63,198 nt of DNA from Burkholderiales bacterium (GCA_036554965.1 DATBMG010000032.1:1-63198); one strand, 5' to 3'. Shown: positions 3,426 to 61,712, numbered from the stretch's first letter. Translations and numbers: made by a program. Notes: generated by a model not told the origin, from the sequence alone.

Positions 3426-3481
3426 CGCCCGGGTGAACGAGGCTGCGCCGGGTCGCCGCATCGGGTCGAGGTAGCGGCGGT

Positions 3482-4840: not shown

Positions 4841-5106
4841 GTAGAAAGTCTTGACTCCGTGGGGTACACTCCGCCCTGAAGGGGAGGCACTCGCGAGGAG
4901 GTTGGTGCTTATCGCAGTGCAGGAAAAACGGACATGAGGTGGCCCGCACGAGCCTGGAGCGGGTGGCCGGGGTGGCCCGGGGTCGTTCAAGCCGGTCTGC
5001 GCTGCGCGAAAAGGGCCGTTCCTGCATCGCATCACCCACGGCCCGCGAGGTCCTGTCCAAGCAGTCCGGCTCGAAGCTCCGACCAATCAAAACCGAGGCC
5101 ACCGCT

Positions 5107-6459: not shown

Positions 6460-6534
6460 GCGGAGGTCTCGGAGGCCAGACGCGAACGGAATCGAGCAAG
6501 ACGAGCAGTTAGCGAGCGACGAGGAGATATTTAG

Positions 6535-8295: not shown

Positions 8296-8351
8296 CCGCC
8301 CATGAACCAGCGTGAAGAGCCCATGAACCGGTGTAATGAGAAGGCGCGGCC

Positions 8352-9038
8352 ATGACCATCACCCTGCTGGTGCTCGCCGTGATCATGGCCGTCGTCGTCT
8401 GGTGGCTGTTGCGCCAGACGGTGAACGTCAGCCCCTGGGTCGAGCAACAATCGATTCAGGACGGTCCGGAAGGAGGCGCCGTCTCCCTGCCCCCGGTGAA
8501 GCTCGGGTTGGGTGTGTTTCTCGGGGTCGCGACATCTCTGTTCGTGCTGCTCATCAGCGCCTACTTCATGCGCATGATGGCCACGGACTGGATCGACCTG
8601 AGCGTTCCGCGCGTGCTGTGGCTGAACACCGCCGCCTTGATCCTGGCCAGCGTCGCGATGCAGTCGAGCGTGGCTGCGGCGCGACGCGCACAGGGCGACG
8701 CGGTGAGAATCGGCCTGATGGCGGCGGGCGGGTTCAGCTTCTTCTTTCTGCTCGGACAGCTGTGGGCGTGGCAGGAGCTCAATGCCGCGGGCTATTTCGC
8801 CACGTCCAATCCCGCCAATGCTTTCTTCTACCTGCTCACCGCGATGCACGGATTGCACCTGCTGGGCGGCCTGTGGGTCTGGTGCCGGACCACGGCCAAG
8901 GTGTGGCGCGGCGTCGAGGTCGCGAAGGTGCGGTTGAGCGTTGAGCTGTGCACCGTGTACTGGCACTACCTGCTCCTGGTCTGGCTGGTTCTGTTCGCGC
9001 TGCTGAGCTATCCCACGCAGTTCGCGTTGCATCGCTAG
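8352..9038 (+). CDS. coxO: Heme-copper oxidase subunit III family protein (CoxO-like)
   Basis: 228-aa polytopic protein with the subunit III-like C-terminal motif (YWHYLLLVW), located directly after coxN. Confidence 0.75.
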   Translation: MTITLLVLAVIMAVVVWWLLRQTVNVSPWVEQQSIQDGPEGGAVSLPPVKLGLGVFLGVATSLFVLLISAYFMRMMATDWIDLSVPRVLWLNTAALILASVAMQSSVAAARRAQGDAVRIGLMAAGGFSFFFLLGQLWAWQELNAAGYFATSNPANAFFYLLTAMHGLHLLGGLWVWCRTTAKVWRGVEVAKVRLSVELCTVYWHYLLLVWLVLFALLSYPTQFALHR

Positions 9039-9072
9039 GTGCCGTCGTCCACATGAAGGGGGGTCGAACAAC

Positions 9073-9789
9073 ATGACGCAACCCGCGCTGACGAGTGCGC
9101 AACAATTGCCCGCAGGCTTGCCGGGCGTCGTCGCCGACTGGTCCTCGGACCAGCGGGCATTCAAGAAGGTGCCCTGGTACAAGGCGATGATGTGGATCTT
9201 CCTGCTCAGCGACACGTTCATCTTCAGCTGCTTCCTGATCTCGTACATGACCGTGCGGGCATCCACCACGGAGCCTTGGCCGAACCCCAGCGAGGTGTTC
9301 GCCCTGACGATGTTCGGTCAGAAGATCCCCATGATCCTGATCGCCATCATGACCTTCGTCCTGATCAGCAGCAGCGGGACGATGGTCCTGGCCGTGAACT
9401 ACGGCTACCGCAAGGATCGCGTCAGGACGTTCATCTTCCTGCTGCTCACCGCGGCACTGGGCGCCACGTTCGTCGGGATGCAGGCGTTCGAGTGGACCAA
9501 GCTGATCATGGACGAGGGGGTGCGACCGTGGAGCAACCCCATGGGCGCGCCCCAGTTCGGCTCGAGCTTTTTCATGATCACCGGCTTCCACGGCACGCAC
9601 GTCTCGTTCGGCGTGCTGTTCCTGATCATCATAGCCATCAAGGTCCTGCGCGGCGATCTGGATAAGGAACGGCCGGGCTTCATGACCGGCAGGAAAGGCA
9701 ACTACGAGATCGTCGAGACCATGGGGCTGTACTGGCACTTCGTCGATCTGGTGTGGGTATTCATCTTCGCCGTCTTCTATCTCTGGTAG
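9073..9789 (+). CDS. coxP: Cytochrome c oxidase subunit III (CoxP-like)
   Basis: 238 aa with motifs ITGFHGTHV and YWHFVDLVW. Confidence 0.85.
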   Translation: MTQPALTSAQQLPAGLPGVVADWSSDQRAFKKVPWYKAMMWIFLLSDTFIFSCFLISYMTVRASTTEPWPNPSEVFALTMFGQKIPMILIAIMTFVLISSSGTMVLAVNYGYRKDRVRTFIFLLLTAALGATFVGMQAFEWTKLIMDEGVRPWSNPMGAPQFGSSFFMITGFHGTHVSFGVLFLIIIAIKVLRGDLDKERPGFMTGRKGNYEIVETMGLYWHFVDLVWVFIFAVFYLW

Positions 9790-9796
9790 GCAAACC

Positions 9797-10186
9797 ATGG
9801 CACACGCGCAAGGGCAACACGCGGCACACGCCGTAGGACAGCAAGAAAAACATGTGGAGGGCCAGCAGCATCCGCTCGGAATCTATCTCAAGATCTGGGG
9901 CTGGCTGTTCGTCCTCAGCGCCGCATCCTACGCAGTCGACTACTTCCACGTTCAGGGCTACCTGCGCTGGTTCCTGATCCTCACCTTCATGATGCTGAAG
10001 GCCGGACTGATCGTCGCGGTGTTCATGCACATGCTGTGGGAGCGGCTGGCCTTGGTCTACGCCATTCTGGTCCCGCCGCTGTTGTTGCTGGTACTGCTGG
10101 CGATCGGCGCGCTCGAAGCGGACTACACTTTCCTCACACGGGGGACGTTCTTCGGAGGGGTGTCCGAGGCGGCGCCGAAGCATTAG
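9797..10186 (+). CDS. Small cytochrome oxidase subunit IV-like membrane protein
   Basis: 129 aa, three TM helices, last gene of the coxMNOP-like operon. Confidence 0.6.
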   Translation: MAHAQGQHAAHAVGQQEKHVEGQQHPLGIYLKIWGWLFVLSAASYAVDYFHVQGYLRWFLILTFMMLKAGLIVAVFMHMLWERLALVYAILVPPLLLLVLLAIGALEADYTFLTRGTFFGGVSEAAPKH

Positions 10187-10908
10187 CGCCGGATGCCGCG
10201 CGGCGCCTTCCACCCTCTGACCAGCAGCGCCGCGTACGCGACAGCGATCAGCGCGCTCATCGCGAACCACTGCAAGGCGTAGGCGCGGTGCATGTCCGCG
10301 CCGGCGTCCAATCGCGGCCACGCGCGCAGCAGGCCGTCGGCCGCGTCGTTGCGCTGCTGCAACACGACGGACTGCAGCACCATCTTGTGGGCGGCGGCGA
10401 AACGCTCCGGATCCAGGTTCTGCCATACCGCGCCGCTCACGGTCCGTGAGGACAGCTCCAGGTAGCGCTTGCTCGGTGGCAACGCGATCCCCTCGACGCG
10501 CAGCCAGCCGGCGGGGGTGACCACCGCCGGCAGCTCCTGCCGGGTGCGCGGGGCCTTCACCCAGCCGCGGTTCACCAGCACGTGCAGGTGGCCCGGCGCC
10601 AGCCGCAAGGGTGTGATGACCTCATAGCCAACCCGGCCCTCGCGCACCCGGTTGTCGAGCAGGATGGTGAACTCGGGCCGAAACTCGCCGTGCGCTTCCA
10701 CGCGCTGATACGCGAGCGTGTCGGCCGGCACCGGCTCCGACGGCAAGTGCACCGGCGGGCGCTGCTGCGCCAGATCCATGCGCTGCTGCAGCGCCAGCTT
10801 TTCGGCCGCGCGGTCTAGCTGCCAGCTGCCGAGCCAGGCGGTGACGGCCACGCCGACGGCCGCGGCGAGCGCCGGCAACAGGCGCGTGTTCGCAAAGGAG
10901 CGGCGCAT
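10183..10908 (-). CDS. SURF1 family cytochrome oxidase assembly protein
   Basis: 241 aa with a TM helix at each end and the WQLDR motif. Its stop overlaps the convergent coxQ-like stop by 4 nt. Confidence 0.85.
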   Translation of the reverse strand: MRRSFANTRLLPALAAAVGVAVTAWLGSWQLDRAAEKLALQQRMDLAQQRPPVHLPSEPVPADTLAYQRVEAHGEFRPEFTILLDNRVREGRVGYEVITPLRLAPGHLHVLVNRGWVKAPRTRQELPAVVTPAGWLRVEGIALPPSKRYLELSSRTVSGAVWQNLDPERFAAAHKMVLQSVVLQQRNDAADGLLRAWPRLDAGADMHRAYALQWFAMSALIAVAYAALLVRGWKAPRGIRR

Positions 10909-10936
10909 CCGCTAGACTCCGTTCGGGCGCAGCGCC

Positions 10937-11134
10937 ATGAGAGTCCTCGTCCTCCTGTTCCTCGCCGTGATCCTCGCCAGCCTCGGCTCGGCGCTGTACT
11001 ACATGATTCGCGACAAAGGGCATTCCCAGCGTACCGTGAGGGCCCTCACCGTGCGCATCGCGCTGTCGATCGCGCTGTTCGTCCTGCTGATAGTGGGCTA
11101 CGCCACCGGCATCATCCCGCGGGGCGGGCTTTGA
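10937..11134 (+). CDS. Twin-TM small protein (DUF2909 family)
   Basis: 65 aa, two TM helices, in the classic position between SURF1 and ctaE. Confidence 0.65.
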   Translation: MRVLVLLFLAVILASLGSALYYMIRDKGHSQRTVRALTVRIALSIALFVLLIVGYATGIIPRGGL

Positions 11135-11249
11135 TCGGCTGCAGGAAATAGCGGCGCTGCCCCTGCCGTCGTTGCCGTTCGCGATCGCTTGAGTGCGGTG
11201 CCTTGCCTGGTCCGCCTGCTGCGGGCCCTCCCGCACTCGAGCGGTCCCG

Positions 11250-12104
11250 TTACAACCAGTACACCAGGACGAACAACAGCAGCCAGACCACGTCCACGAA
11301 GTGCCAGTACCAGGAAACCGCCTCGAAGCCGAAGTGATGCTCGGGTTTGAAGTGGCCGCGCAGCGCGCGGAAGAAGATCACGATCAGCATGATCGTGCCG
11401 AGCGTGACGTGCAGGCCATGGAAGCCGGTGAGCAGGAAGAAGGTCGCGCCGTAGGCCCCGGTGCCGAGCGTCAGGCCGAGCTCGCTGTAGGCGTGCGCGT
11501 ACTCATAGGCTTGCAGCGCGAGGAACAGGCAGCCCAGCACGACGGTCAGGAACAAGCCGACCTTGAGCTGCCTGCGGTCGCCCAGCTTGAGCCCCCAGTG
11601 CGCCCAGGTCACGGTGGCGCCCGAGAACAGCAGGATCAGCGTGTTGATCGCCGGAATGCCCAAGGCCCCCATCGGGGTGAAGGGCTCGGTCAGGCCGGGA
11701 CCCGAGACCGGCCACCCGGCCTCGAAGTTCTGCCACAGCAGGGCTCCGGTGTCGCCTTCGCCGAGCCAGGGGACCGACAGCACGCGCATGTAGAACAGCG
11801 CGCCGAAGAAGGCGGCGAAGAACATCACTTCGGAGAAGATGAACCAGCCCATCGCCCAGCGGAAGGAGAGGTCCACCTGGCTGTTGAACTTGCCCGCCTC
11901 GCTCTCGCGGATGACCGTGCCGAACCAGCCGGACAGCATGTAGATCAGCAGGCCCGCGCCACCCGCCAGCGGCCACCAGCCGGAGACCGAGTCGTTCAAC
12001 AGCAGCACGGTGCCGAAGGCGATCAAGAACAGCGCGCTGGAACCGACCACCGGCCAATGCGACGGTGCCGGCACGTAGTAGCGGCTGGAATCGGTGCTCG
12101 CCAT
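11250..12104 (-). CDS. ctaE: Cytochrome c oxidase subunit III (aa3-type)
   Basis: 284 aa with motifs TGFHGLHV and SWYWHFVDVVW. Confidence 0.92.
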   Translation of the reverse strand: MASTDSSRYYVPAPSHWPVVGSSALFLIAFGTVLLLNDSVSGWWPLAGGAGLLIYMLSGWFGTVIRESEAGKFNSQVDLSFRWAMGWFIFSEVMFFAAFFGALFYMRVLSVPWLGEGDTGALLWQNFEAGWPVSGPGLTEPFTPMGALGIPAINTLILLFSGATVTWAHWGLKLGDRRQLKVGLFLTVVLGCLFLALQAYEYAHAYSELGLTLGTGAYGATFFLLTGFHGLHVTLGTIMLIVIFFRALRGHFKPEHHFGFEAVSWYWHFVDVVWLLLFVLVYWL

Positions 12105-12158
12105 GGTTGCCCCTCCTATCGCTGGGCTACTTCGGGGTGTTGGATCGGCCGCTGCCCG

Positions 12159-12434
12159 TCACACGATCAGGTTCACCAGCGTCACCAGGATGATCACAAA
12201 CAGGGCCGCGGCGATGACGCCCGCCACGATCACGTGGACCGGCTTCAGGCTCGCCAGGTCCCGATCACCCGCGCTTCTCCTGCGGATGCCGATGAACGCG
12301 CCGAGCACCGCCGATATCGCCCGCAGCGGCGAGGCCCTGCGGGTGCGCTGTTCCCGCGTCGACTGCGGGCTTTTCGGCATCGACCCGGCCGTGGTCACTT
12401 CTCCCACGCGCCTGTGCGAATCGAACGGCGCCAT
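12159..12434 (-). CDS. DUF2970 family small membrane protein
   Basis: C-terminal single TM helix (VIVAGVIAAALFVIILV), in the conserved position between ctaG and ctaE. Start uncertain; an internal MPKSPQS is possible. Confidence 0.6.
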   Translation of the reverse strand: MAPFDSHRRVGEVTTAGSMPKSPQSTREQRTRRASPLRAISAVLGAFIGIRRRSAGDRDLASLKPVHVIVAGVIAAALFVIILVTLVNLIV

Positions 12435-12438
12435 TGCG

Positions 12439-12993
12439 TCAGCTCGCTCCCGACCCTGCGCCCTGCGCCAGCTGAAAGAAGGTATAGGACAGCGTGATCA
12501 CGGTCACGTCGCGCGGCAGCTGCGGATCCACCACGAACTGCACCGGCATCTGCCGGGTCTCGTTGCCCTGCAACTCCTGCCGCGCGAAGCAGAAGCACTC
12601 GATCTTCTTGAGGTATTGCGCCGCCGCCTGCGGACCGTAGCTCGGGATGGCTTGCCCCAGCACCGGCGCGTCGCTGGTGTTGCGCACCTCGTAGAGCACC
12701 TGGATCACCTCCCCCGGGTGTGCACGCACGCTCTTCTGCAGCGGCCGGAACTCCCAGGGCAGTCCGCGCGTGTTGGCGTCGAACTCGATGGTGAGCAGAC
12801 GGCTCTCGTCGATCTGCGTGTTGCGCACCGCGTCGGGTCCGTCCAGGTTGTAGATGCCGGTGGTCTCGCAGATCTTCTCGTAGATCGGCACCAGTGCGAA
12901 ACCGAACGCGAACATTCCCGCCGCAACGACGACCAGCTTGCGCAGCAGTTGCCGGTTGGCGTGCGCCACAGTCATCGACCGGGTCGGGTTCAC
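12439..12993 (-). CDS. ctaG: Cytochrome c oxidase assembly protein CtaG/Cox11 (CuB insertion)
   Basis: 184 aa with an N-terminal TM helix and the CFCF copper motif (KKIECFCFARQ). GTG start overlaps the upstream stop (GTGA). Confidence 0.9.
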   Translation of the reverse strand: MNPTRSMTVAHANRQLLRKLVVVAAGMFAFGFALVPIYEKICETTGIYNLDGPDAVRNTQIDESRLLTIEFDANTRGLPWEFRPLQKSVRAHPGEVIQVLYEVRNTSDAPVLGQAIPSYGPQAAAQYLKKIECFCFARQELQGNETRQMPVQFVVDPQLPRDVTVITLSYTFFQLAQGAGSGAS

Positions 12994-13124
12994 TGGTACA
13001 GGCGCCGCAGCAGGAAGCCGAGGAGGAAAGCCGCCGCGATCGACGCCAGGATCAACGCGGTGCGTAGGTTTCGCGCGCGGACCCTGTCGCCGTCGCTCCG
13101 CATCGTGCCCGCCATCTGTCTCAT
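12990..13124 (-). CDS. Small single-TM protein between ctaD and ctaG (possible cytochrome oxidase small assembly protein)
   Basis: 44 codons (MRQMAGTMRSDGDRVRARNLRTALILASIAAAFLLGFLLRRLYQ*), translationally coupled to ctaG. Called from position and TM character only. Confidence 0.45.
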   Translation of the reverse strand: MRQMAGTMRSDGDRVRARNLRTALILASIAAAFLLGFLLRRLYQ

Positions 13125-13138
13125 CTCAGTCGCGCCTA

Positions 13139-14722
13139 TCAACGGATGAGCGGAGGCGTCTCGAAGCTGTGGTAGGGAGGCGGCGATGGCAGCGCGGTCC
13201 ACTCCAGGCTGTCGGCGCCTTCCCACGGCCTCTGCGCGGCCTTCTTGCCGCTGCGGATGGTCTTCAGCACGATGTACAGGAACAGCAGCTGCGACACTCC
13301 GAAGCCGAAGGCGCCGATGCTCGAGATCGCGTTGAACTCGACGAACTGCAGCGCGTAGTCGGGAATGCGCCGCGGCATGCCAGCGAGCCCGGAGAAGTGC
13401 TGCACGAAAAAGGTCACGTTGAAGAACACGAACGACAGCCAGAAGTGCAGCTTGCCGAGCGTCTCGTCGTACATCCTGCCGGTCCACTTGGGCAGCCAGA
13501 AGTAGATGCCGCCGAAGGCCGAGAACAGGGCGCCTGCCACCATCACGTAGTGGAAGTGCGCGACCACGTAATAGGTGTCGTGCAGCTGCACGTCCAGCGG
13601 GGCGATCGACAGCACCAGGCCGGTGAAGCCGCCCAGGGTGAACAGGAACAGGAAGCCGATGGCGAACAGCATCGGCGTCTCGAAGCTGAGCGAGCCCTTC
13701 CACATGGTCGCCACCCAGTTGAACACCTTCACTCCGGTCGGGACCGCGATCAGCATGGTGGCGAACATGAAATAGAGCTGCGCCTGCACCGGCATGCCCA
13801 CCGTGTACATGTGGTGCGCCCACACCAGGAACGACAGGATGGCGATAGAGGCGGTGGCGTACACCATCGAAGCGTAGCCGAACAACGGCTTGCGCGAGAA
13901 CGCCGGCACGATCTGCGAGATCACGCCGAAGGCCGGGATGGCGATGATGTAGACCTCCGGGTGGCCGAAGAACCAGAAGATGTGCTGGAACAGCACCGGG
14001 TCGCCGCCACCCGCGGGGTTGAAGAAGTGCGTGCCCAGATGACGGTCGGTGAGCAGCATGGTGACGGCGCCGGCGAGCACCGGCATCACCGCGATCAGCA
14101 GGTAGGCGGTGATCAGCCAGGTCCAGCAGAACATCGGCATCCGCATCAGCGTCATGCCGGGGGCGCGCATGTTCAGCAGCGTGGTGATGATGTTGATCTA
14201 GCCCATGATCGAGGACACGCCCAGAATGTGCACCGCGAAGATGGTCAGGTCCATGCTCAGGCCCTGCTGAACGGTGAGCGGGGGGTAGAGCGTCCAGCCC
14301 ACGCCGGCGCCGCCGCCCGGGGCGAACTGGGCCAGGATCAGCAGCAGGGCGGCCGGCGGCAGCAGCCAGAAGCTCCAGTTGTTGAGCCGCGGAAAGGCCA
14401 TGTCCGGCGCGCCGATCTGCATCGGGATCAGCCAGTTGGCGAACCCCACGAAGGCCGGCATGATGGCCCCGAAGACCATGACCAGCCCGTGATAGGTGGT
14501 CATGCTGTTGAAGAACTCGGGCTCGGTGACCTGCAAGCCGGGCTCGAACAGCTCGGCGCGGATCACCAGGGCCATGACCCCCCCGAGGATGAACATCGAG
14601 AACGAGAACCACAAGTACATCGTGCCGATGTCTTTGTGGTTGGTGGTGGTGAGCCAGCGCATCAGCCCGGAAGGGGCGTGATCGTGCCCGTGGTCGTGCG
14701 CGTAGCCGTGTGCCGCTTCCAT
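13139..14722 (-). pseudogene. ctaD: Cytochrome c oxidase subunit I (aa3-type CtaD) interrupted by an in-frame TAG at 14198-14200
   Basis: ORFs 14198-14722 and 13139-14170 are in the same frame. Together they read ...[28 protein letters not shown]..., so the stop sits at the conserved Ala of the GAINFITT motif. The rest is intact (GHPEVY, WAHHMY, VAHFHY). Confidence 0.85.
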
Positions 14723-14783
14723 CTGTCGCTTCTCCCGCTCGCCTTGCGTTTCTCGGACCTCGTCGGCCGGCGCCTCGCGCCGG

Positions 14784-15839
14784 CTACCTCGACTGCGCCA
14801 CCATGTACGCGACGGCCGCCCTCACCTGCTGGTCCGACAGTCCGGGATTGCCGCCCTTGGGCGGCATCATGCGGATCCCCTTGAGCGCGTTCTGCATCAG
14901 CGTCGCTTCGCCGCGCGCGATGCGCGGCGCCCAGGCTGCTTTGTCGCCGGTCCTTGGCGCGCCGGCCAGTCCGGCCGCGTGGCACGCCTGACAGATCTGC
15001 TCATATGTGCCCTTGCCGTCGGCCGGCTCCGCGGCGGCCGCTGCGTCCCCGACAACTGCAGCCTGCATGGACTTCTGCTCCGCCACCCACTGGTCGAACT
15101 CGCGCTGGGTCACGGCGCGCACCACGATGGGCATGAAGGCGTGCTCCTTGCCGCACAGCTCGGCGCACTGGCCGCGGTAGACGCCGGGCTCCTCGGCACG
15201 GAACCAAGCGTCGCGCACGAAGCCGGGAATCGCATCCTGCTTCACCGCCAGCGCGGGTACGTACCAGGCGTGCAGGACGTCGGCCGCGGTGGTCAGGATG
15301 CGCACCTTCTTGCGCACCGGCACCACCAGCTCGCGGTCCACCTCGAGCAGATAGTGCTCGCCCTTGGGCTCACGGTTGTCGATCTGGGCGCGCGGGGTGG
15401 CGAGGTTGCTGTAGAAGCTCACCCCTTCCTGCAGATAGTCGTAATGCCACTTCCACTGGTAGCCGGTGGCCTTGATGGTTAGGTCGGGGGCCGAGGCGTC
15501 GCGCTGATCGAGCAGCGTCTTGGTGGCGGGCCAGGCCATGCCGAGCAGGATCAAGAAGGGGATCACCGTCCAGATCATCTCGACGGTGGTGTTCTCGTGG
15601 AACAGCGCCGCCTGGTGCCCGACCGACTTGCGGTGCCTCCAGATGGCGTAGAACATCGCGCCGAACACCGCGACGAAGATCACCAGACAGATCAGCACGA
15701 CGGCGTTGTGCAGATCGTAGATGGCGTGACCGACCGCGGTCTTCTGGTCCTGCAGCCCGAGCCTCCACTCCCCCGAGGCGAGGCCCGCCCACAGCGACAG
15801 CAGCGCGCCCGCCAGAGCGTGGGCGGCTTTTCTAGTCAT
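14784..15839 (-). CDS. ctaC: Cytochrome c oxidase subunit II with a C-terminal monoheme cytochrome c
   Basis: 351 aa with a signal peptide, two TM helices, CuA site CAELCGKEHAFM and one CQACH motif. Start at MTRKAAHAL (ATG 15837-15839). Confidence 0.92.
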   Translation of the reverse strand: MTRKAAHALAGALLSLWAGLASGEWRLGLQDQKTAVGHAIYDLHNAVVLICLVIFVAVFGAMFYAIWRHRKSVGHQAALFHENTTVEMIWTVIPFLILLGMAWPATKTLLDQRDASAPDLTIKATGYQWKWHYDYLQEGVSFYSNLATPRAQIDNREPKGEHYLLEVDRELVVPVRKKVRILTTAADVLHAWYVPALAVKQDAIPGFVRDAWFRAEEPGVYRGQCAELCGKEHAFMPIVVRAVTQREFDQWVAEQKSMQAAVVGDAAAAAEPADGKGTYEQICQACHAAGLAGAPRTGDKAAWAPRIARGEATLMQNALKGIRMMPPKGGNPGLSDQQVRAAVAYMVAQSR

Positions 15840-15985
15840 GGTTTGGGGATTGTTCCTGCGCGCAACCGGCAGATGGCTCTGCGGCTCCGCGACATCGGCA
15901 AGTTGCATTGCTTCCCAGGCCCCGATCGCTCCCGGGATCGAGCGGGTCCTCCTCGTGGGCCGGCAATTTAGCATAGCGGCGAGGA

Positions 15986-16867
15986 TCAAGGCAAGGCGCG
16001 CGGCTGCACGCGGATCACCGCGCGCCCGTCTTCGGTCACGCGCGGTCCCTGCTGCGGCTTCCACGCGTGGCCGTACACGATCTCGAAGGTCACCGGGAGG
16101 CGTCCCTCGCGCCGCTGCGGCTCGTAGCCCTGTTCCAGCTGGCGCAGCCAGCCGCGGCCGCGCAGCCCCGCGTCGCCGGCGCTTGCGGCGTTGCTGCAGC
16201 CGCTGGCGCGCAGCTCGCGCGCCAGCGCGGCAAAGTCGGAGAACGTGAGCGTCATGCGCTCCATGTCCATGACCGGATCGGCATAGCCCGCCCGCACCAG
16301 CAGATCGCCGGTATCGTGCATGTCGGCGAAAGCATGCACCCTGGCGGCCCCGCGATGCGCGGTGCGCAGCTCGCGCAGCGTGTCCGGGCCGAGCGTGCTG
16401 AACATCAGCAGCCCACCGCGCGTGAGCACCCGCAACCACTCGCGCAACGCCCGCTCCGGCCGCGCGGCCCATTCCAGGGCGAAGTTGGAGCAGATCAGGT
16501 CCACGCAGGCGGCGCGCAGCGGCAGGCGCTCGAAATCGCCGCACACGGACCACAGCGGGCGCCCGCGCCCCGTCAGACGCGACCACCATGAGCGCGGCGC
16601 CCGGCCGCGGCGCAGCATCGCGAGCGAGAAGTCGAGCGCCACGACGCGCGCGCCGGGATAGCGGGCCGCGAGCGCGCGCGCCATGTGACCGGTGCCGCTG
16701 CCCGCGTCGAGGATGGTGCGCGGCTGCAACTTGACCAGTTCGAGCCGCTCGAGCAGGCGCGCGCAGATCTCGCGCTGGAGCACGGCGGCGCTGTCGTACG
16801 TGGCGGCGGCGCGCTCGAAATGCAGCCGTGCGCGGCGCTTGCTGATGCCGGGTGGTGGTGGATCCAT
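15986..16867 (-). CDS. bioC: Malonyl-ACP O-methyltransferase BioC-like class I SAM methyltransferase
   Basis: 293 aa with FERAAATYDSAAVLQREI and the LDAGSGTG motif, divergent from comF as in many proteobacteria. Confidence 0.75.
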   Translation of the reverse strand: MDPPPPGISKRRARLHFERAAATYDSAAVLQREICARLLERLELVKLQPRTILDAGSGTGHMARALAARYPGARVVALDFSLAMLRRGRAPRSWWSRLTGRGRPLWSVCGDFERLPLRAACVDLICSNFALEWAARPERALREWLRVLTRGGLLMFSTLGPDTLRELRTAHRGAARVHAFADMHDTGDLLVRAGYADPVMDMERMTLTFSDFAALARELRASGCSNAASAGDAGLRGRGWLRQLEQGYEPQRREGRLPVTFEIVYGHAWKPQQGPRVTEDGRAVIRVQPRALP

Positions 16868-27766: not shown

Positions 27767-27820
27767 CGGCCTCCCGACGCCGGGCGCGCCGACGCTGTTG
27801 CGATCGCGGGCGCTGCGCGC

Positions 27821-28402
27821 TCAGGCCGGGACCAGCTGCTTCCACTGCGCCGGCCAGGCCTCGAGCGGGTCGCGCTTGAAGCCGCTCTTGGCGAACTGGT
27901 GCCAGCGGCCGATCACGAAGCACAGCATGAGATTGGCATGCGCCGCCGCGTCCACCGCTTCCGGGACCTCGCCCTGGGTGGCGGCAAAGCGCAAGCATTG
28001 CTTGAGAGTGGCCTCGAGCCGGTCGTGCAGCTGGTTGATGCGCGCCTGCAGGCGCTCGTTCTCGTTCACCAGCGCGTCGCCGATCAGCACCCGCGTCATA
28101 CCGCGGTTCTTGCGCGCGAATCCCAGCAGCATAGACAGCACCGCTTCGAGCTGCGCCAGGCCGCCCTGCTGCTCGGCGGTGATCTTGTTCACCAGCCCGA
28201 AGATGGTTTCCTCGATGAAGCCGATCAGGCCCTCGAACATCTGCGCCTTGCTGGCGAAGTGGCGGTACAGCGCCGCCTCGGAGACGTCGAGCTTGGCGGC
28301 GAGCGCCGCCGTAGTGATGCGCTCGGCGCTGGGCGTCTCGAGCATCTCCGCCAGCGTCTGCAGGATCTGCAGCTTGCGCTCGCCGGGCTTGGTCGCGGGC
28401 AT
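27821..28402 (-). CDS. slmA: TetR-family nucleoid occlusion factor SlmA
   Basis: 193 aa with KPGERKLQILQTLAEMLE and TTAALAAKLDVSEAALYRHFASKAQMFEGLIGFIEE. Start at MPATKPG. Confidence 0.85.
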   Translation of the reverse strand: MPATKPGERKLQILQTLAEMLETPSAERITTAALAAKLDVSEAALYRHFASKAQMFEGLIGFIEETIFGLVNKITAEQQGGLAQLEAVLSMLLGFARKNRGMTRVLIGDALVNENERLQARINQLHDRLEATLKQCLRFAATQGEVPEAVDAAAHANLMLCFVIGRWHQFAKSGFKRDPLEAWPAQWKQLVPA

Positions 28403-28407
28403 GGCCT

Positions 28408-29075
28408 CTAGCGCAGGTGGCGCAGCATGCGGGGCAGCTGCGCAAGATTGGAGACGGTCACGTCCACGTGTGCGCGCAAGCGGCCGCTCGGCTGCACCCA
28501 TACCGTTCTCATACCCAGCCGCTTGGCCGCCATCAGGTTCGCCAGGTCGTCCTCCACCATGACGCAGCGCTGCGGATGCAGGCGGTGCTTGCGCAGCAGG
28601 CGCAGGAAGCCCGCCGGGTCCGGCTTGGGCCGGAAGCCGGTGTGCTCGATGGTGAACACGTCGTCGAACAGATCCGCCACCCTGAGAAGCTCCAACACCG
28701 CCCGGGAATAATGCACCGGAGCGTTCGAAAACACCAGCTTGCGCCCGGGCAGCCGCGTCAGCACCGAGCGCAGCAGCGGATTGCGCAGCACCGCGCGCTC
28801 CAGCTCGGCGAACCGATGCGTCTCCCGCAGGAAGTGCCGCGGGTCGACCCCGTGGTGGCGCATCAGTCCCAGCAGGGTGGCCCCATAGCGCCGCCAGTAG
28901 TCTACCCGCAATGCATTCGCGGCTTGCGCGTCGAGCCCCAGGTAGCGCTCCAGGTAGGCGGTCATGGAGCGGTTCAGGTGCGGGAAGATGTGCGGGTTGG
29001 CGTCGTGCAGCGTGTTATCCAGATCGAATATCCACACCGTGCCCACACCGTGGTGCGGCCGGGGGCGCCGGCTCA

Positions 29076-34466: not shown

Positions 34467-34781
34467 CGGACGGGTCTTGCGTGCGAATCCCCTCCGACAG
34501 CGCCCGTGCAGCCGCCCGTGATTGAGATCCGATGCGCCAGGTTAGCAGACCTGCGCAACTACGGCGCGAGGTCCGCTCGAAGCGGAGCCGCACGCCCATC
34601 ACTCGCAGATCAACAACGATTCACGGCAGCGCGCCGCCGCATCCAAGCAACGCCGGCACCCGTATCACGCGGAGCAGGCGGCCTGGAGAACGCGGATCCG
34701 GCCCTGGCCACCTTGCCGCGCCCGCACGCTCCCCGCGGCCGCGCACCGCACGCCGGCCGCATCCTTTCACGGAGAAGTGCA

Positions 34782-35042
34782 ATGGATACTCCCAAGCTTG
34801 CCCTTGCGGCCGCGGCTGCGGCGCTGTTCATCGCCGGGTGTACCACCCAGGGCGGCGGCAGCACGATGCAGACGGCGGACGCCGGAACGGTGAAGGTGAA
34901 GTGCTATGGCGCCAACGCCTGCAAGGGCCAGGCCGAGTGCAAGACGGCGATGAACGAGTGCAAGGGCCACAACGCCTGCAAGGGCAAGGGCTTCTTGAGC
35001 ATGACCGAGAAGGACTGCGTGGATCGCCTCGGACGCGCTTGA
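34782..35042 (+). CDS. Cys-rich secreted RiPP precursor of the bufferin type (BufA-like), with a lipobox
   Basis: GGAGAAG SD, then ATG. The 86-aa product starts [20 protein letters not shown] (IAGC lipobox). The core [40 protein letters not shown] has six Cys. It lies immediately upstream of the MNIO/DUF2063 pair. Confidence 0.8.
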
Positions 35043-35050
35043 GGCGTGGC

Positions 35051-35090
35051 GGGAAGCCGGTCGTGCCCGCCGGCTTCCCGCTCTTTTCTC
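35051..35090 (+). terminator. Intra-operon hairpin plus T-tract between the precursor and the MNIO gene (candidate attenuator/partial terminator)
   Basis: Perfect 10-bp stem gggaagccgg / ccggcttccc (35051-35060 and 35070-35079), 9-nt loop, then gctcttttctc. Confidence 0.6.
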
Positions 35091-35092
35091 GT

Positions 35093-35977
35093 ATGCGCCG
35101 AGACGCACTCTTGCCGGACCGCACGGCCCCGCCGCCGGACCGAGGATTGACCTTGCCGAGCGCGGGCTTCGGCCTGGGGCTGCGCACCGCACACTACGAA
35201 GCGATCGCGGCTGAACGGCCCGCGGTCGACTGGTTCGAGATCCTGACCGAGAACTACCTGGTGCCCGGCGGGCGGCCCCTGCAATGGCTGGACCGGATCG
35301 GCGCCGACTATCCGCTCGCCATGCACGGCGTGTCGCTGTCGGTCGGCAGCACCGATCCCCTCGACCTCGACTATCTGCGCGCGGTGAAGGCGTTGGCGCA
35401 GCGCGTCGCCCCGCTGTGGATCTCCGATCATCTGTGCTGGACCGGCGTGGCCGGCAAGAATCTGCACGACCTGCTGCCGTTGCCCTACACCGAACCGGCG
35501 CTGCGCCACGTGGTGGCGCGCGTTCAGGCGGCGCAGGAGTTGCTGGGGCAGCGCATCCTGCTGGAGAACGTCTCCAGTTACGTGGAGTTCAAGGATGCCG
35601 AGATGACCGAGTGGGAGTTCCTGGCGCAGGTGGCGCGGCAGGCCGACTGCCTGATCCTGCTGGACGTCAACAACATATATGTCAGCGCCTGCAACCATGG
35701 CTTCGCGGCCGACAACTACCTAACCGGCATCCCGGCCGAGCGCGTGCAGCAGATTCATCTGGCGGGACACAGTCATTGCGGCGAGTACATCATCGACACC
35801 CATGACGCGCCCGTGGCCGACCCGGTGTGGGCGCTGTACGAGCGCGCGGTCGGGCGCCTGGGCCCGGTGGCCACCATGATCGAGCGCGACGATCGCATTC
35901 CTCCGCTGGCGGAGTTGCTGGCCGAGCTCGAGCGGGCGCGCGCGCTCGGCGCCCGTGTGCAGGCCAGGCAGGCATGA
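35093..35977 (+). CDS. MNIO family (DUF692) multinuclear non-heme iron oxidative enzyme, BufB-like
   Basis: Motifs [52 protein letters not shown] and IHLAGHS. Start is ATG 35093, or in-frame TTG 35153, which has a better SD (GAGGA). Confidence 0.88.
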
Positions 35978-36753
35978 GCCTCCGCGCTTTGCAGGATGCC
36001 TTCCAAGCGTACGTGTTGCACGGGGCGGCACCGATCCGCGAGCGCGTCGCGCCGGGACCGCTGCACAACGCCGAGCGGCGCCTGCGGATCTACTACGACG
36101 CCTATCGGCTGCGGCTGATCGAGGCGCTCGCCAGCGATTACGAGACGCTGCGCGCCGCGCTGGGCGAGGAGGCGTTCCGGACTGCGGCCTTGGCGTACGT
36201 GCAAGCGAATATGTCGCAGTGGCGCAACGTGCGCTGGTACGGTGCGCGGCTACCGGACTTCCTGCGCGACACCGCGCCGTGGAGCGACCGCGTCTGGCTC
36301 AGCGACATCGCGCACTTCGAGTGGACGCTGACGCTGGCTTTCGATGCCGCGGACGCGTCCCGCCTGACCTTCGCCGAGCTCGCCACGCTGCCGCCCGAGG
36401 CGTGGGCGGCGCTCGCCTTCCGGCTGCACCCGTCCGTGCATCTGCTGCGGCTGTCGAGCAACGCCCCGGCGATGCGCAAGGCGGTGGACGCGGGCGCCGC
36501 ACTTCCCGCCATCGAGACCTACGATTCGCCCGTCGAGTGGCTCGTCTGGCGCAACAGCCTTACCGTGTCTTTTCGCTCGCTGCCGGTCGCGGAGCGCTAC
36601 GCCCTCGTCGCGGCGCAGCGCGCCAAGAGCTTCCCGGCGATCTGCGAAGGCATCTGCGCGTTCGTCCCTGCCGACGAAGCGCCTGCGCTCGCCGCCGGCT
36701 GGCTGCGCACCTGGGTGGACGACGGGTTGATCAGCGCAGCGCTGCTGCCCTAG
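35974..36753 (+). CDS. DUF2063 family protein (MNIO partner/precursor-recognition subunit, BufC-like)
   Basis: 259 aa with [10 protein letters not shown] and [21 protein letters not shown] overlap with the MNIO gene. Confidence 0.85.
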
Positions 36754-37193
36754 TCTTCCTGCAGCAGCGGTCGCACCTCGGCGCTGACCGGCACCTCCAC
36801 GCGCTTGCCGGCCTGCTCGACGATCAGAGTCAGCGCCACGCGCTCGCCCGGCTTGAGCGGCTTGGCAATATCGAACAGCATCACGTGGAAGCCGCCCGGC
36901 TCGAGCTTCACCGTCCGGTTCGCAGGCAGGTCGAGCGCTTCGACCTTGCGCATCTTCATCACGCCCCCGGCGTGGCTCATCTCGTGCACTTCCGCCGCTG
37001 CTGCGGCGCGGCTGCGCACACCCACCAGGCGCGATGCGCGATCGGCCTTGAGCAGCATGTAGACGCCGGCCACCTTCTGGCCCGGCATGGTGGCGCGCGC
37101 CCAGGCCTCGCTCACCTCCACCGCGGCGCGCACGCCGCCGGCGACCAGCCACAGGGCCACCGCCGAAGCGGCAAGTGCATGTCGTGCTTTCAT
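36750..37193 (-). CDS. Periplasmic copper chaperone PCu(A)C (DUF461)
   Basis: 147 aa with a signal peptide and the H(M)x10Mx21HxM-type motif (EVHEMSHAGGVMKM...GGFHVML). Its stop overlaps the bufC-like stop through a shared CTAG. Confidence 0.88.
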   Translation of the reverse strand: MKARHALAASAVALWLVAGGVRAAVEVSEAWARATMPGQKVAGVYMLLKADRASRLVGVRSRAAAAAEVHEMSHAGGVMKMRKVEALDLPANRTVKLEPGGFHVMLFDIAKPLKPGERVALTLIVEQAGKRVEVPVSAEVRPLLQED

Positions 37194-53936: not shown

Positions 53937-56348
53937 TCAAGCTTTCGCAGTCCTCGGTTGGATGGATGCAAAAGATCTCAAGCGCGAGAGCAAGACTCCC
54001 CAGAGGAAAAAAGTGAAGATGCCGGGATAAGGTTGCCGAAGCCCGACCTTGAGTGAGTTATCCAGCAGTACAAGGAACAAGACCACCGCGGCGAGTCCGA
54101 GCAAGCCTTCCGAAGCGATGACAGCCTGCCGGCGCATGAGAATCATGGCTAGCGTATAGGCGATGAGCGCCAAAAACGGAAACATAGCAAGGGCGCCGAA
54201 ATTGTAGACGAAGTCGAGATAATAGTTGTGCGCGCTCGGGTATCTGGTTCGCTCCGGGCGCTCCGCATGTCCGAGCAGAAAGGCTCGCGGCCCACTGGCA
54301 ATCCCTGCTCCATAAAATTTCCAGTAGCCGATACGCTCGTTCATGTTTGGGGCTATCTCGTTCAAGTTGCGCGTACCTGTGGTGCTCGTTCCCTCCAATA
54401 AAGGATATTTCCAAGACATGTGTTCCCTCGCATAGCCTACATAGGCAACTGCGGACACTGCCACAACCAGCGTCATAACCGCCGGAATTCTGTCCCGTTT
54501 GACACGCCACCGCATGATGGCGAATCCGATAACGCCCGTGATGAGCGCGAGCATCGCAGACATGGACAAAGAGGCTGCTGCATAGAGGGCCAAGACGGGG
54601 GCCAGAACCAGCAGTATCTTTCTGCAATGAGAAAGATCCCAAAGGCCACAGAGCGCTACTAAGTACGCGCAGCACATGATGACCGGAACGTATTGCATGT
54701 GCTGATATACGCTGAACAGATACAGATACGGATATAGAAGCAGATAACCCTGCGCCCAGCTGAGGACAAGTTGCACCGGGATCAGCACAGCCAACACATG
54801 AAGAAACGGCTTCTCGAAGCCCGACAGGACGCCTTCCGGATCAGCGTAGAGCTGCCCGAGAACCAACGCGAACATCGGCAGAACAAACTGCACGAGCAGA
54901 ATCAGCTTCGCCTGAGCCTGCCCGGTGTCCCCCGAGGTCGTGAGAATGGCGGCCGCCAGCATCAGGAGGCAAGTGAAGAAGATGAAGGCCAGAGACAGCC
55001 TGGCCTTCCTGTATTCGCCCAGGAGGACGATTCCGCCGTAGCAGGCAAGAACGGACAGCGGAATCGGCAGCCGCGCCAGCATCCCGCCGGAATCGAAGAT
55101 GAACTCGGGCGAGCGAAATATGCCGCCCCTCATCTGCAAGAAAAGCGGGAAGAGCAAGGCCGCGGCGATCAGTGCCTTGAGCCTCCCCGCCGAGAGGAAC
55201 GAGAGGAGGTGCGTGGGAGACGGGGCCCTCTCCGAACTTGAGTAGAACACCAAGGCAAGCACGGCGCTCCAGAGATAGAGCGCCGTCAGAGCGGGCTCGC
55301 CAAGCAGATAGTACGAGAACGGGACGGAAGCAACGACCAGGATGTTCTGCAACACGTCGGGGCCAAATACATCCTTATGCTCGTGGTGCTGGAGCAGCCT
55401 GAGCCGGACGCGCTGCGCCTGGACCATGATCACTCCGCCGATAAGGGACAACCCCATCGCGCCCCAGAAAAAAGCGCTCTTGCCGGTCCAGCCTAGGAGG
55501 TTCGGTGCAAACAACGATCCGAGCGAAAAGGCCGCTCCGAGACCCAATGAGAGAAGAGAAACGCTCTTGAGATACCAAGGGAAATAAACGCGACCGCTGC
55601 GCTGTTCGTGAAGAACGATGCTCGGTCCCAGCGCCACGGCGAACACGGACCCCGGGAAGCCGCCGATCGCGAACGCGGTATATAGATCGCCCGCCGTTTC
55701 TTTTCCGGTCAGCGAAAGGATCAGTAGACGGAAGACGTATACCGTAACGCCGATGATGGCGGTCGAGCCGAAGTGGGGAGCCAGGATGCGCCATGACGCT
55801 GCAGCTTTTTCGGAGATCCTGATGGCGCCCTGAACAAATCTAATGTTGACCAGCGCAGGCAGCAGAGCCCATGCGTACCACGCAAGCAGTGGCATCGGCG
55901 CGTTGGAGAGCACCCACGCCAGGACCAGGATGAATGAAGCGCACTCCCGAAGCAGAAACCACTTCGCACTGCCTTGAGCGCGTGTCCGCTCCATCTCACC
56001 GAGATACACTTCGCTCAGCCACTCCATGCAGCGCCGCATGATGAGCGCAACGGCCAAGCCCTGTTCGGCACCTCCCAGCGGTGCGGCCAAACCCAGGGAG
56101 ATTGCCGCGAGCGGAACCATCAGCAGCAAGCGCCCGCGAAGGATAAAGCGCGTCGAGACCGGCGAAGCCGGGTTCAGAATCAAGTTGCGGGCGTTGGCGG
56201 ACAGCGCATAGAACAGAGCCAAAGTCGCGCCCTGAACGATGCCGACTTCCGCTGCAAGCTCGGAGCGCCCCGCCAGCCCAAGCGATATGAGCATCAGCGT
56301 CATGGCGAAGCTATTCACCGCGTACGCCACAGGAAACCAGTAGTTCAT
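53937..56348 (-). CDS. 803-aa polytopic membrane protein with a C-terminal Wzy_C (O-antigen polymerase/ligase) signature and a large extra N-terminal membrane domain
   Basis: More than 20 predicted TM segments. The C-terminal part has SAHNYYLDFVYNFGALA. Hand counts of two 60-nt lines give about 47-48% GC, the lowest seen in the window. Confidence 0.7.
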   Translation of the reverse strand: MNYWFPVAYAVNSFAMTLMLISLGLAGRSELAAEVGIVQGATLALFYALSANARNLILNPASPVSTRFILRGRLLLMVPLAAISLGLAAPLGGAEQGLAVALIMRRCMEWLSEVYLGEMERTRAQGSAKWFLLRECASFILVLAWVLSNAPMPLLAWYAWALLPALVNIRFVQGAIRISEKAAASWRILAPHFGSTAIIGVTVYVFRLLILSLTGKETAGDLYTAFAIGGFPGSVFAVALGPSIVLHEQRSGRVYFPWYLKSVSLLSLGLGAAFSLGSLFAPNLLGWTGKSAFFWGAMGLSLIGGVIMVQAQRVRLRLLQHHEHKDVFGPDVLQNILVVASVPFSYYLLGEPALTALYLWSAVLALVFYSSSERAPSPTHLLSFLSAGRLKALIAAALLFPLFLQMRGGIFRSPEFIFDSGGMLARLPIPLSVLACYGGIVLLGEYRKARLSLAFIFFTCLLMLAAAILTTSGDTGQAQAKLILLVQFVLPMFALVLGQLYADPEGVLSGFEKPFLHVLAVLIPVQLVLSWAQGYLLLYPYLYLFSVYQHMQYVPVIMCCAYLVALCGLWDLSHCRKILLVLAPVLALYAAASLSMSAMLALITGVIGFAIMRWRVKRDRIPAVMTLVVAVSAVAYVGYAREHMSWKYPLLEGTSTTGTRNLNEIAPNMNERIGYWKFYGAGIASGPRAFLLGHAERPERTRYPSAHNYYLDFVYNFGALAMFPFLALIAYTLAMILMRRQAVIASEGLLGLAAVVLFLVLLDNSLKVGLRQPYPGIFTFFLWGVLLSRLRSFASIQPRTAKA

Positions 56349-56384
56349 GGCGTAACGATCAGAATTCGCATGGCTCCGCTGCGC

Positions 56385-60569: not shown

Positions 60570-61712
60570 CTAGCTCGTTCCTCCTCCAACAATCAGTCTC
60601 CGGTAGATCGAATCGTAGGCGTCGGCCGCCGCCGCAATGGTGAGGCCCCGAAGACCATCCGCCGCACGCGCGGCACGCTCGCGGGCCCGCGACGGCTCCG
60701 CCAGCAACGTTACGATCGCTTGGGCCAGAGCTCCGGCATCGTCACGCGGAACCATAAGCGCTGATCTCTCATCGAGAAACTCCCGGTGCTCCGGAATGTC
60801 GCTCACAATGAGAGGGCAAGCTGCAGCCATGGTCTCGAGCACGACGTTTGGATGCCCCTCGAATCGGCTCATGCTGATAAGCCCGGAAGCCTGCCTCAGC
60901 AGACCCCACCACTCCTGCAGGTAAGGCAGCAGGTGAACACGGCCATCAAGCCCAGACCGCTTGATCTCAGCGTCGAGGCGCGCGCGCAATGGGCCTTCCC
61001 CGAAAACCAGCACGCGAAAATCCCGGCGGCTCGCCAGCGAAGTCGCCTCGATCACGACCTCCACGGCCTTCTGGTGATCCAGCCGACCCACCACGAGCAG
61101 TGTCTTCTCCCCGACCGAACAAAGCGACCGATCCGCGGCTGGCGCGTTGCGGATCGATTCGGCATCGACCGCATTCCGGATGGTGGCAACGCTCGCGTAC
61201 CCCCCAGCCAGCCGGTGCCAGTAGTCCGCCCCAGCGGCAGAATTCGCGACGAACGCGTTTGCACGACGCCCGATGAATTCTCGTATCCAGGTGGTGGGCT
61301 TTCGCCTGTCGAACGCGAGCTTGGATGCCCGCTCGGAGAGTATCCAAGGCACGCGACGCCAGAGCGCCACCAGCCCTCCCGCAATATCCATCTGCGGTAG
61401 CCAGGTCTGGATCACGTCTGGTTTCGTGCTCCGCACGATTGAGTCTATGCGTCGCACGAGCGCCGGGCTTAGGCCTCTCAGATCGCCGAGCTCGTGCACT
61501 TCGACGCTGGTCGTACGGAGGCGCGTTTCGTGAACGCCGCCGCGCCGCCGTGCGACGTGCACACGGTGCCCGCGCGCCGCCTGTTCCGCGGCCAGCATCG
61601 CAAGCTGCCGTTCGGCGCCGCCACCCCCGAGCGATGGGATCAGATGGAGAACCGTGATCAACAAAGTGATTCCGCGGGAGTGGGCAGTATGGGTCTCCTG
61701 CCCAGCAGCCAT
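60570..61712 (-). CDS. GT4 family glycosyltransferase
   Basis: About 380 aa with HLIPSLGGGGAERQL and MSRFEGHPNVVLETMAAACPLIVSD. Start chosen at the ATGA overlap with the upstream gene. Confidence 0.8.
   Translation of the reverse strand: MAAGQETHTAHSRGITLLITVLHLIPSLGGGGAERQLAMLAAEQAARGHRVHVARRRGGVHETRLRTTSVEVHELGDLRGLSPALVRRIDSIVRSTKPDVIQTWLPQMDIAGGLVALWRRVPWILSERASKLAFDRRKPTTWIREFIGRRANAFVANSAAGADYWHRLAGGYASVATIRNAVDAESIRNAPAADRSLCSVGEKTLLVVGRLDHQKAVEVVIEATSLASRRDFRVLVFGEGPLRARLDAEIKRSGLDGRVHLLPYLQEWWGLLRQASGLISMSRFEGHPNVVLETMAAACPLIVSDIPEHREFLDERSALMVPRDDAGALAQAIVTLLAEPSRARERAARAADGLRGLTIAAAADAYDSIYRRLIVGGGTS

Follow-up and report, generated by a model that had tools for sequence, protein, structure and literature searches.

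The stretch of DNA analysed here, referred to as the window, is a 63,198-nt contig (~67% G+C) from an uncultured Burkholderiales bacterium, and all positions follow the numbering of the whole window. Three co-directional genes on its + strand, read directly as open reading frames (ORFs), stand in the order A-B-C: bufA2 (34782..35042), which encodes an 86-aa Cys-rich precursor; bufB (ending at 35977, with 35093, 35147 and 35153 as candidate starts), which encodes a multinuclear non-haem iron oxidase (MNIO, or DUF692 protein); and bufC (35974..36753), which encodes a DUF2063 partner protein of the PME1 type. An initial annotation made from the sequence alone had placed all three ORFs at these positions and had described a bufferin-type cassette of the six-Cys class for a ribosomally synthesised and post-translationally modified peptide (RiPP). 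Both statements hold, as the ORFs lie where they were said to lie, the precursor and the enzyme pass the equivalog cut-offs of the BufA2 and BufB families, and the partner is recognised as a DUF2063 protein by Pfam and by fold. The locus is very probably a complete buf2ABC cassette whose product is a Buf2-type bufferin, in newer terminology a Cys-Lys ‘captophorin’, and which works by the mechanism proposed below.

Relatives of the cassette come from a species-representative survey with one genome per species, which contained at least 553 loci with a Buf2 relative; counts of Buf2 loci given below refer to the best 80 of these. A database search with the precursor returned 855 homologues at E <= 0.001.

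The precursor, its maturase and the partner protein

The precursor belongs to the Buf2 (BUF_6/12Cys, ‘Cys-Lys’) class. Residues 6-84 match the NCBIfam equivalog model NF050166 (Cu_RiPP_BufA2, named ‘BufA2 family periplasmic bufferin-type metallophore’) with 83 bits against a cut-off of 60 (E 1.2e-23). A Pfam scan of the precursor gave no match to DUF2282 (PF10048, the BufA1 family), in agreement with the initial annotation, which had set the peptide outside that class. The same database offered DUF7640 at 17.1 bits, under its cut-off of 28.1, and this candidate was dismissed.

Inspection of the Cys-rich core (34902..35018) reveals six Cys residues at 41, 47, 53, 60, 66 and 79 together with the quasi-repeat GANACKGQ / GHNACKGK, exactly as had been read from the sequence before. 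Their spacing is C41-x5-C47-x5-C53-x6-C60-x5-C66-x12-C79, and the pattern C-x5-C-x5-C-x6-C-x5-C-x8-16-C fits all 86 Buf2 precursors taken from the species-representative loci. The four central residues (47, 53, 60 and 66) each precede Lys; C41 precedes Tyr and C79 precedes Val. In alignment A1 the residues C41, C47, K48, C53, C60, K61, C66, K67 and C79 are invariant, and Lys is invariant or near-invariant after each of the four central Cys residues. Caulobacter Buf2 carries unmodified Cys I and Cys VI, which probably form a disulfide, while each of its four central Cys residues shows a mass change of -4.03 Da (PMC11626156). With these roles carried over to the window's precursor, a disulfide is predicted between C41 and C79.

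The precursor also holds a seventh Cys, C20, ahead of the core. A lipobox follows the rule [LVI][ASTVI][GAS]C and stands after a positive n-region and a hydrophobic h-region, with its Cys at position 15-35 (PROSITE PS51257). The precursor meets this rule with I17-A18-G19-C20 and with K5 in the n-region. A pattern-based assignment gives residues 1-19 as the signal peptide, in which K5 is followed by a hydrophobic Ala/Leu stretch that leads into the lipobox F16-I17-A18-G19-C20; signal peptide and C20 together span 34782..34841, where the C20 codon is 34839-34841. Since C20 lies in a canonical lipobox, a signal peptide of the lipoprotein (signal peptidase II, SPII) type is predicted, and BufA2 would be a membrane-tethered lipoprotein variant of Buf2. 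The initial annotation was right that a signal sequence is present and missed its type, and the lipobox Cys had been overlooked along with the intercistronic hairpin and the PCu(A)C neighbour described below. In Escherichia coli, lipoproteins that lack Asp at position +2 are directed to the outer membrane; the precursor lacks Asp at +2, and the anchoring membrane is probably the outer membrane.

Conservation of the lipobox was followed at two depths. Among the 120 nearest precursor homologues, 113 carry a lipobox of the form L-[FL]-x-[AT]-G-C, which marks the lipobox-bearing Buf2 subgroup as abundant in soil Burkholderiales metagenomes. Among precursors of the species-representative genomes the lipobox is found in 11 of 86, close to the ~16% given for Buf2 precursors in the literature (PMC12452194). 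DybA is an MNIO-made RiPP whose lipidation through the SPII route has been demonstrated, and the same fate is predicted for a subset of bufferins (PMC13056109). Lipid anchoring of bufferins is therefore known in principle and, as far as found, predicted but uncharacterised for Buf2.

Turning to the enzyme, BufB matches NF050167 (MNIO_BufB, ‘MNIO family bufferin maturase’, an equivalog model) with 386.7 bits against a cut-off of 310 (E 4.5e-116) and stays below the cut-offs of the sister models HvfB (267 bits; 360), ApyH (86 bits; 400), MbnB (73 bits; 325) and ChrH (40 bits; 600). PF05114 (MbnB_TglH_ChrH) matches the protein end to end (E 3.9e-111), and a sequence search of the PDB returned 3BWW, TglH and three MbnB proteins. 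The iron ligands of MbnB are H54, H90, E133, D163, N166, H192, D208, H210 and E239 (PMC9060507). Alignment of BufB with MbnB, TglH and 3BWW shows that all nine are kept, as H78, H113, E158, D191, N194, H222, D235, H237 and E264 (numbered from the ATG at 35093), and the earlier statement that the enzyme carries the full set of family motifs is borne out residue by residue.

BufB residues 264-267 form an ERDD motif that bears on substrate choice. A 2026 study of thiooxazole-forming MNIOs distinguished three groups of precursors, namely DUF2282, ‘Lys-Cys’ (with EGKCG repeats) and ‘Cys-Lys’, and found that the residue next to the catalytic Asp is Phe in Lys-Cys MNIOs and Asp in Cys-Lys MNIOs (PMC13097082). 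In the same work the first Asp of ERDD is the proposed catalytic base, and Asp251 of BufB2 touches the substrate Lys in an AlphaFold model (PMC13097082). ERDD is present in 42 of the 49 MNIOs that lie beside Buf2 precursors (the window's own and 41 of 48 relatives), and ERDF occurs in the HvfB-type structure 3BWW and in the hvf-type enzyme of relative L090. Judged from sequence, the specificity Asp of BufB fits the C-K dyads of its own precursor. The cassette encodes no second Cys-rich candidate substrate.

Three starts were considered for bufB. The ATG at 35093 gives 294 aa; the TTG at 35147, chosen in NCBI record HEY7758309.1, gives 276 aa; and the TTG at 35153, which has GAGGA 6 nt upstream of it, gives 274 aa. 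The ATG is doubtful: it lacks a Shine-Dalgarno sequence, abuts the T-run of the intercistronic hairpin, and precedes a family profile alignment that starts at residue 26 of the 294-aa version. Because the profile begins only there, one of the two TTG codons is more probably the start. Translation of bufA2 is preceded by a Shine-Dalgarno sequence, GGAGAA at 34771-34776, 5 nt ahead of its ATG. The ATGA overlap of bufB and bufC noted earlier is present at 35974-35977, and through it bufC is translationally coupled to bufB.

The N-terminal part of BufC (residues 6-97) matches PF09836 (DUF2063) with 71.6 bits against a cut-off of 27.2 (E 6.5e-20). A BufC search of the PDB by sequence gave no match, and its AlphaFold model, at a predicted local distance difference test (pLDDT) score of 91.3, was compared by fold. 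Foldseek matched this model to the gonococcal DUF2063 protein 3DEE (E 1.6e-6, template modelling score 0.77) and to TglI, the partner of the MNIO TglH (8HI7_A, E 2.5e-5); weak matches to RiPP recognition elements (RREs), as in TbiB1 (E about 0.7-0.9), are consistent with an RRE-like C-terminal half. Placement of BufC in the HvfC subfamily was rejected at 28 bits against the NF050145 cut-off of 142, where the partner protein of L090 scores 295.7 bits for comparison.

The deposited record names the two proteins ‘DUF692 domain-containing protein’ (BufB) and ‘DNA-binding domain-containing protein’ (BufC). The remark that standard pipelines give hypothetical or DUF names applies to this record and not to the current NCBIfam, which contains named BufA2 and BufB models; the generic names can be replaced by BufB and BufC.

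Intercistronic hairpin, gene neighbourhood and selection

Between bufA2 and bufB, immediately behind the stop codon of bufA2, lies a stem-loop (35048..35092, + strand) that was flagged by a terminator scan. It has a 14-bp stem with 10 G-C pairs and a 7-nt loop, and is followed by the T-run CTTTTCTCGT. Its folding energy is -33.1 kcal/mol (z = -5.3); all 200 shuffled versions were less stable. Structure at this position recurs across the family: the bufA-bufB spacers of 43 Buf2 clusters have a median z of -2.5, with z < -2 in 29 of them, and a strict terminator-like rule picks out 10 of 46 spacers versus 5 of 920 shuffles. L083, L087, L146, L148, L150, L017 and L005 have hairpins there as well, with sequences that differ, and in L150, where precursor genes are duplicated, a hairpin follows each of the two tandem copies. 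The element is probably a partial terminator or attenuator, or a transcript stabiliser, that raises precursor over enzyme transcript.

The association of the three genes is conserved. An MNIO gene lies directly downstream of the precursor in 48 of the 80 Buf2 loci, and 46 of these 48 also have DUF2063. A protein identical to the window's precursor is encoded on at least 20 independent metagenome contigs, and the A-B-C order is the same on those shown; an exact look-up in the cluster table gave no entry for it, a database inconsistency of no consequence. Against L146, an 80%-identical relative, the ratio of nonsynonymous to synonymous substitution rates (dN/dS) is 0.14 for bufA, 0.14 for bufB and 0.31 for bufC, and therefore all three genes are under purifying selection.

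The initial annotation had listed the lack of a DoxX-type gene and of a sigma/anti-sigma pair as departures from the usual form. As observations these stand, since DoxX, Sigma70 and NrsF families are absent among the scanned genes, which make up most of the contig and take in the ~15 kb before and the ~9 kb after the cassette. As departures they do not, because both absences are normal for Buf2. In 46 Buf2 clusters, 107 ORFs were scanned in the 1.5 kb that follow bufC; they matched 46 Pfam families, of which 25 were listed, and DoxX is not one of these 25. On the basis of that downstream survey, its lack is typical of Buf2. The Caulobacter prototype of buf2 (CCNA_02999-03001) is likewise an ABC operon without bufD/DoxX (PMC11626156), and sigma/anti-sigma genes are found in Buf1, not Buf2, clusters (PMC12452194).

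Several arrangements of precursor genes were seen among relatives. In the Burkholderiales metagenome-assembled genomes (MAGs) L001 (6311-7092) and L005 (9284-10162), a lipobox-type bufA2-bufB-bufC operon faces a divergent ‘orphan’ bufA2 paralogue without lipobox. Across the Burkholderiales relatives L001-L006, such a second Buf2 paralogue lacking the lipobox stands alone or diverges from the lipobox-type operon. In L150/L151, two tandem precursor genes lie ahead of bufB.

Proposed mechanism and comparison with known systems

The mechanism proposed for the cassette takes its chemistry, the identity of the modified Cys residues, lipidation, localisation, copper binding and the role of the hairpin from the Caulobacter system and related work. 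The 86-aa BufA2 would be synthesised in the cytoplasm, where a complex of BufB, the iron oxidase, and BufC, with its DUF2063 and RRE-like parts, would bind it. With O2, residues C47, C53, C60 and C66 would each be converted to a 5-thiooxazole by a four-electron oxidation worth about -4 Da. Modified BufA2 would then be exported by Sec, Lgt would place a diacylglyceryl group on C20, signal peptidase II would cleave at FIAG|C, and the new N-terminus would be acylated. Following formation of the C41-C79 disulfide, a domain of ~6.9 kDa would hang from the membrane on a Gly/Ser/Thr-rich linker of ~20 residues, its thiooxazoles sequestering copper such that periplasmic copper is buffered. For the stretch C20-A86 in its unmodified state the monoisotopic mass comes to 6918.14 Da. 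The stem-loop after bufA2 would yield more precursor than enzyme transcript. For the Caulobacter Buf2 product, a -18 Da shift, absorbance near 305 nm and protection from copper stress have been reported (PMC11626156), and the thiooxazole assignment comes from later work (PMC13097082).

Several observations weigh against this reading or parts of it. Approximately 40% of the Buf2 genes found in genomes have no MNIO gene beside them (‘orphan’ precursors), and unlinked orphan Buf2 precursors are also described in the literature (PMC12452194). In L083/L084, the closest relative with a precursor 89% identical to that of the window, all that is left of bufB is an internal fragment of 84 aa and bufC has been deleted, while bufA2 is intact (L083 6001-6800); the bufA2 hairpin and PCu(A)C are retained, and 4-6 kb upstream there is a second MNIO/DUF2063 pair, accompanied by genes of the DUF2282 (BufA1) type. 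Because the closest relative has lost bufB and bufC and ~40% of precursors lack an adjacent MNIO, the peptide may work unmodified or be modified in trans, and the orphan precursors and the gene losses suggest one or the other.

Further points concern structure, anchoring and regulation. The AlphaFold model of the precursor, built from a 29-sequence alignment, was poor (pLDDT 47.5, predicted template modelling score 0.21) and was left unused, so the C41-C79 disulfide is drawn from homology. No characterised lipobox-bearing Buf2 is described in the literature as far as found. The +2 rule comes from E. coli and does not apply to all bacteria. A promoter is presumed in the 5' intergenic region (34467..34781, + strand) between bufA2 and a divergent yhdP/asmA-like gene. 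A promoter scan gave no sigma-70-like site upstream of bufA2, Rfam had no match anywhere in the window, and the upstream regions of seven lipobox-type clusters align only among near relatives such as L083 and share no common motif. Since neither a regulator nor a copper-responsive promoter was found by these three approaches, copper induction of the cassette is an assumption.

Of characterised systems, buf2ABC of Caulobacter vibrioides is alike in its precursor, MNIO and DUF2063 genes without DoxX or an adjacent sigma/anti-sigma pair, in the six-Cys BufA2 core, and in a BufB-class enzyme with the Cys-Lys-type Asp. The two differ in the fate of the product: Caulobacter Buf2 has a signal peptidase I site and is soluble in the periplasm, whereas the lipobox of the window's precursor (SPII) predicts a membrane anchor. 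The Caulobacter operon is under SigF, whereas scans of the window found no regulator. Unlike Caulobacter buf2, the window has a strong bufA-bufB hairpin and a PCu(A)C gene next door.

Comparison with Buf1/gig systems (gig of Cupriavidus metallidurans and buf1ABCD of Caulobacter) reveals the same MNIO and DUF2063 pair and a Sec-exported Cys-rich precursor, with a disulfide, thiooxazoles and a copper role that are predicted for the window. Those systems have a DUF2282 BufA1, a DoxX BufD1 and often an extracytoplasmic function (ECF) sigma factor with NrsF, in contrast to the window, which lacks PF10048, DoxX and sigma/anti-sigma genes. Buf1 has four Cys residues and two heterocycles; the window's precursor has six core Cys residues and four predicted heterocycles.

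The oxazolin, fontiphorin and gonophorin systems (HvfABC, FonABC) share an MNIO with a DUF2063/RRE partner and a Cys-rich precursor with signal peptide, and their copper-binding thiooxazoles are predicted for the window as well. The oxazolin type differs in its ‘Lys-Cys’ precursor of EGKCG repeats and in ERDF, where the window has a six-Cys domain, C-K dyads and ERDD, and the window's enzyme and partner fall below the oxazolin models (HvfB 267 versus 360; HvfC 28 versus 142).

Methanobactin MbnABC shares the MNIO fold, the nine Fe ligands and the partner-assisted oxidation of Cys to a copper-binding heterocycle, the last of these predicted for the window. It differs in that the partner MbnC is not a DUF2063 protein, the heterocycle is an oxazolone-thioamide, and the small chalkophore produced serves copper acquisition, has its leader cleaved and is secreted by a dedicated export route; the window's enzyme reaches 73 bits in the MbnB model, whose cut-off is 325. 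DybA and related lipidated MNIO RiPPs (PMC13056109) resemble the window in a lipobox precursor, for which modification by an MNIO in the cytoplasm is expected before entry into the general lipoprotein pathway. In contrast, DybA depends on a ChrH-like MNIO, carries a macrocycle and a hydantoin and comes from another host phylum, and its lipidation has been shown where that of the window's product is predicted.

Bufferins, ribosomal peptides that bind copper, form a very large class that was recognised only recently; thousands of members have been described, and few of them have been studied. To this class the window adds no new kind of system; it provides a clean, intact representative of the lipobox-bearing Buf2 subgroup. 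The locus is of modest interest, for three features: a predicted lipid anchor, which is uncharacterised in Buf2, a hairpin that recurs throughout the family, and a PCu(A)C neighbour specific to its lineage. It is a reasonable template for asking whether a thiooxazole metallophore is in fact lipid-anchored and at which membrane, whether the hairpin sets the ratio of precursor to enzyme, and whether the PCu(A)C neighbour has any significance.

The PCu(A)C neighbour and competing explanations

The gene that follows the cassette (36750..37193, - strand; PF04314, E 3.3e-35) encodes a PCu(A)C periplasmic Cu(I) chaperone and is a neighbour, at most a candidate member, of the system. It is convergent with bufC, and the stop codons of the two genes overlap in CTAG at 36750-36753. 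The two genes also stand side by side elsewhere in the window's lineage and in L009, L081-L084, L087, L097/L100, L146 and L150. Approximately 20 kb from the buf2-PCu(A)C locus, the stretch 146-16000 is rich in genes for the biogenesis of copper enzymes, encoding Sco1/SenC (146-769), haem O synthase (816-2228), a first oxidase stretch with a COX2-cytochrome c fusion, COX1 and COX3 (4855-9789), and a second with SURF1, COX3, CtaG/Cox11, a second COX1 and COX2 (10183 to about 16000).

These neighbours raise the alternative that lipid-anchored Buf2 serves copper supply rather than acting mainly as a stress buffer, with copper on the membrane side exchanged with PCu(A)C and Sco1 for the haem-copper oxidases. 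Besides the converging genes with their overlapping stops and the presence of Sco1, CtaG/Cox11, SURF1, haem O synthase and two oxidase operons on the same contig, the distribution of the cassette among close PCu(A)C relatives speaks for this idea, as an MNIO and DUF2063 cassette is found at 9 of 11 PCu(A)C orthologues with at least 53% identity and enough flank, and in three of those nine loci it is a cassette of the other class (HvfB/HvfC, GKCG repeats). The association fades quickly with distance, however: the cassette is present in 1 of 14 PCu(A)C-dacA loci at 45-53% identity and in none of 18 below 45%. Nor is it strict among close relatives of the precursor, since L148 (precursor 78% identical) has the cassette without PCu(A)C. 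Across Buf2 loci, PCu(A)C lies within 10 kb in 1 of 80 and cox genes in 1 of 80. The convergent arrangement means that PCu(A)C and bufC are not co-transcribed, and no link between PCuAC and MNIO was found in the literature that was searched. On balance copper supply is an improbable primary role, although it fares better than the other alternatives.

As a partner of Buf2 in general, PCu(A)C was rejected on that count of loci and on the occurrence of the PCu(A)C-dacA backbone without a cassette in more distant relatives. Because those relatives keep the backbone without the cassette, the backbone predates the cassette.

In L089, L090 (6597-8526, - strand) and L094 (3825-6460, - strand), the place between HSP20 and PCu(A)C-dacA is taken not by buf2 but by a cassette of the hvf/oxazolin type. 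This hvf-type cassette has a GKCG-repeat precursor, matches to HvfB (407.7 bits) and HvfC (295.7 bits), and ERDF. Two captophorin classes share one chromosomal position beside PCu(A)C. It is conceivable, though improbable, that Buf2 and PCu(A)C form a functional pair in which a tethered thiooxazole reservoir of copper feeds the PCu(A)C/Sco1 route to the contig's haem-copper oxidases or is drained by it, and that the hvf swap reflects selection for the pairing and not an insertion hotspot.

A product of the same thiooxazole chemistry could instead handle another metal, such as gold, mercury or zinc, or another periplasmic stress. Gig operons were first described as gold-induced (PMC11626156), MerC-Buf2 fusions occur in mercury clusters (PMC12452194), and no copper regulator or copper-efflux gene adjoins the cassette. 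Set against these, copper is the metal indicated by every characterised system among Buf1, Buf2, oxazolin and fontiphorin (PMC11626156; PMC13097082), and the sole metal-related neighbour of the cassette is a copper chaperone, which leaves this alternative slightly less probable than copper supply.

Very unlikely, and the weakest of the three, is that BufA2 is an unmodified, disulfide-rich small lipoprotein with BufB and BufC inactive or acting on another substrate: the many orphan precursor genes and the nearest relative that lost bufB and bufC but kept bufA2 favour it, but both of these genes are intact in the window and evolve under purifying selection, all iron ligands, the catalytic Asp and the Lys-recognising Asp are kept and match the C-K dyads of the precursor, the cassette offers no other Cys-rich candidate substrate, and the relative with the losses has its second MNIO/DUF2063 pair 4-6 kb away. 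The reading of the locus as a copper-buffering buf2ABC cassette is preferred over all three.

Two minor observations concern the rest of the contig. Four ORFs, at 53937-56384 (- strand), 27767-28711 (+ strand), 8340-9038 (+ strand) and 60765-61400 (+ strand), have coding-like G+C content at third codon positions and no Pfam match at E <= 1e-4, and one of these Pfam-less ORFs encodes 815 aa within a region of polysaccharide/O-antigen genes. The COX1 gene at 13139-14821 (- strand) contains an in-frame TAG at 14198-14200 inside the conserved segment ...SSIMG*INIITT..., which could be a nonsense mutation, the mark of a pseudogene or an error of MAG assembly.

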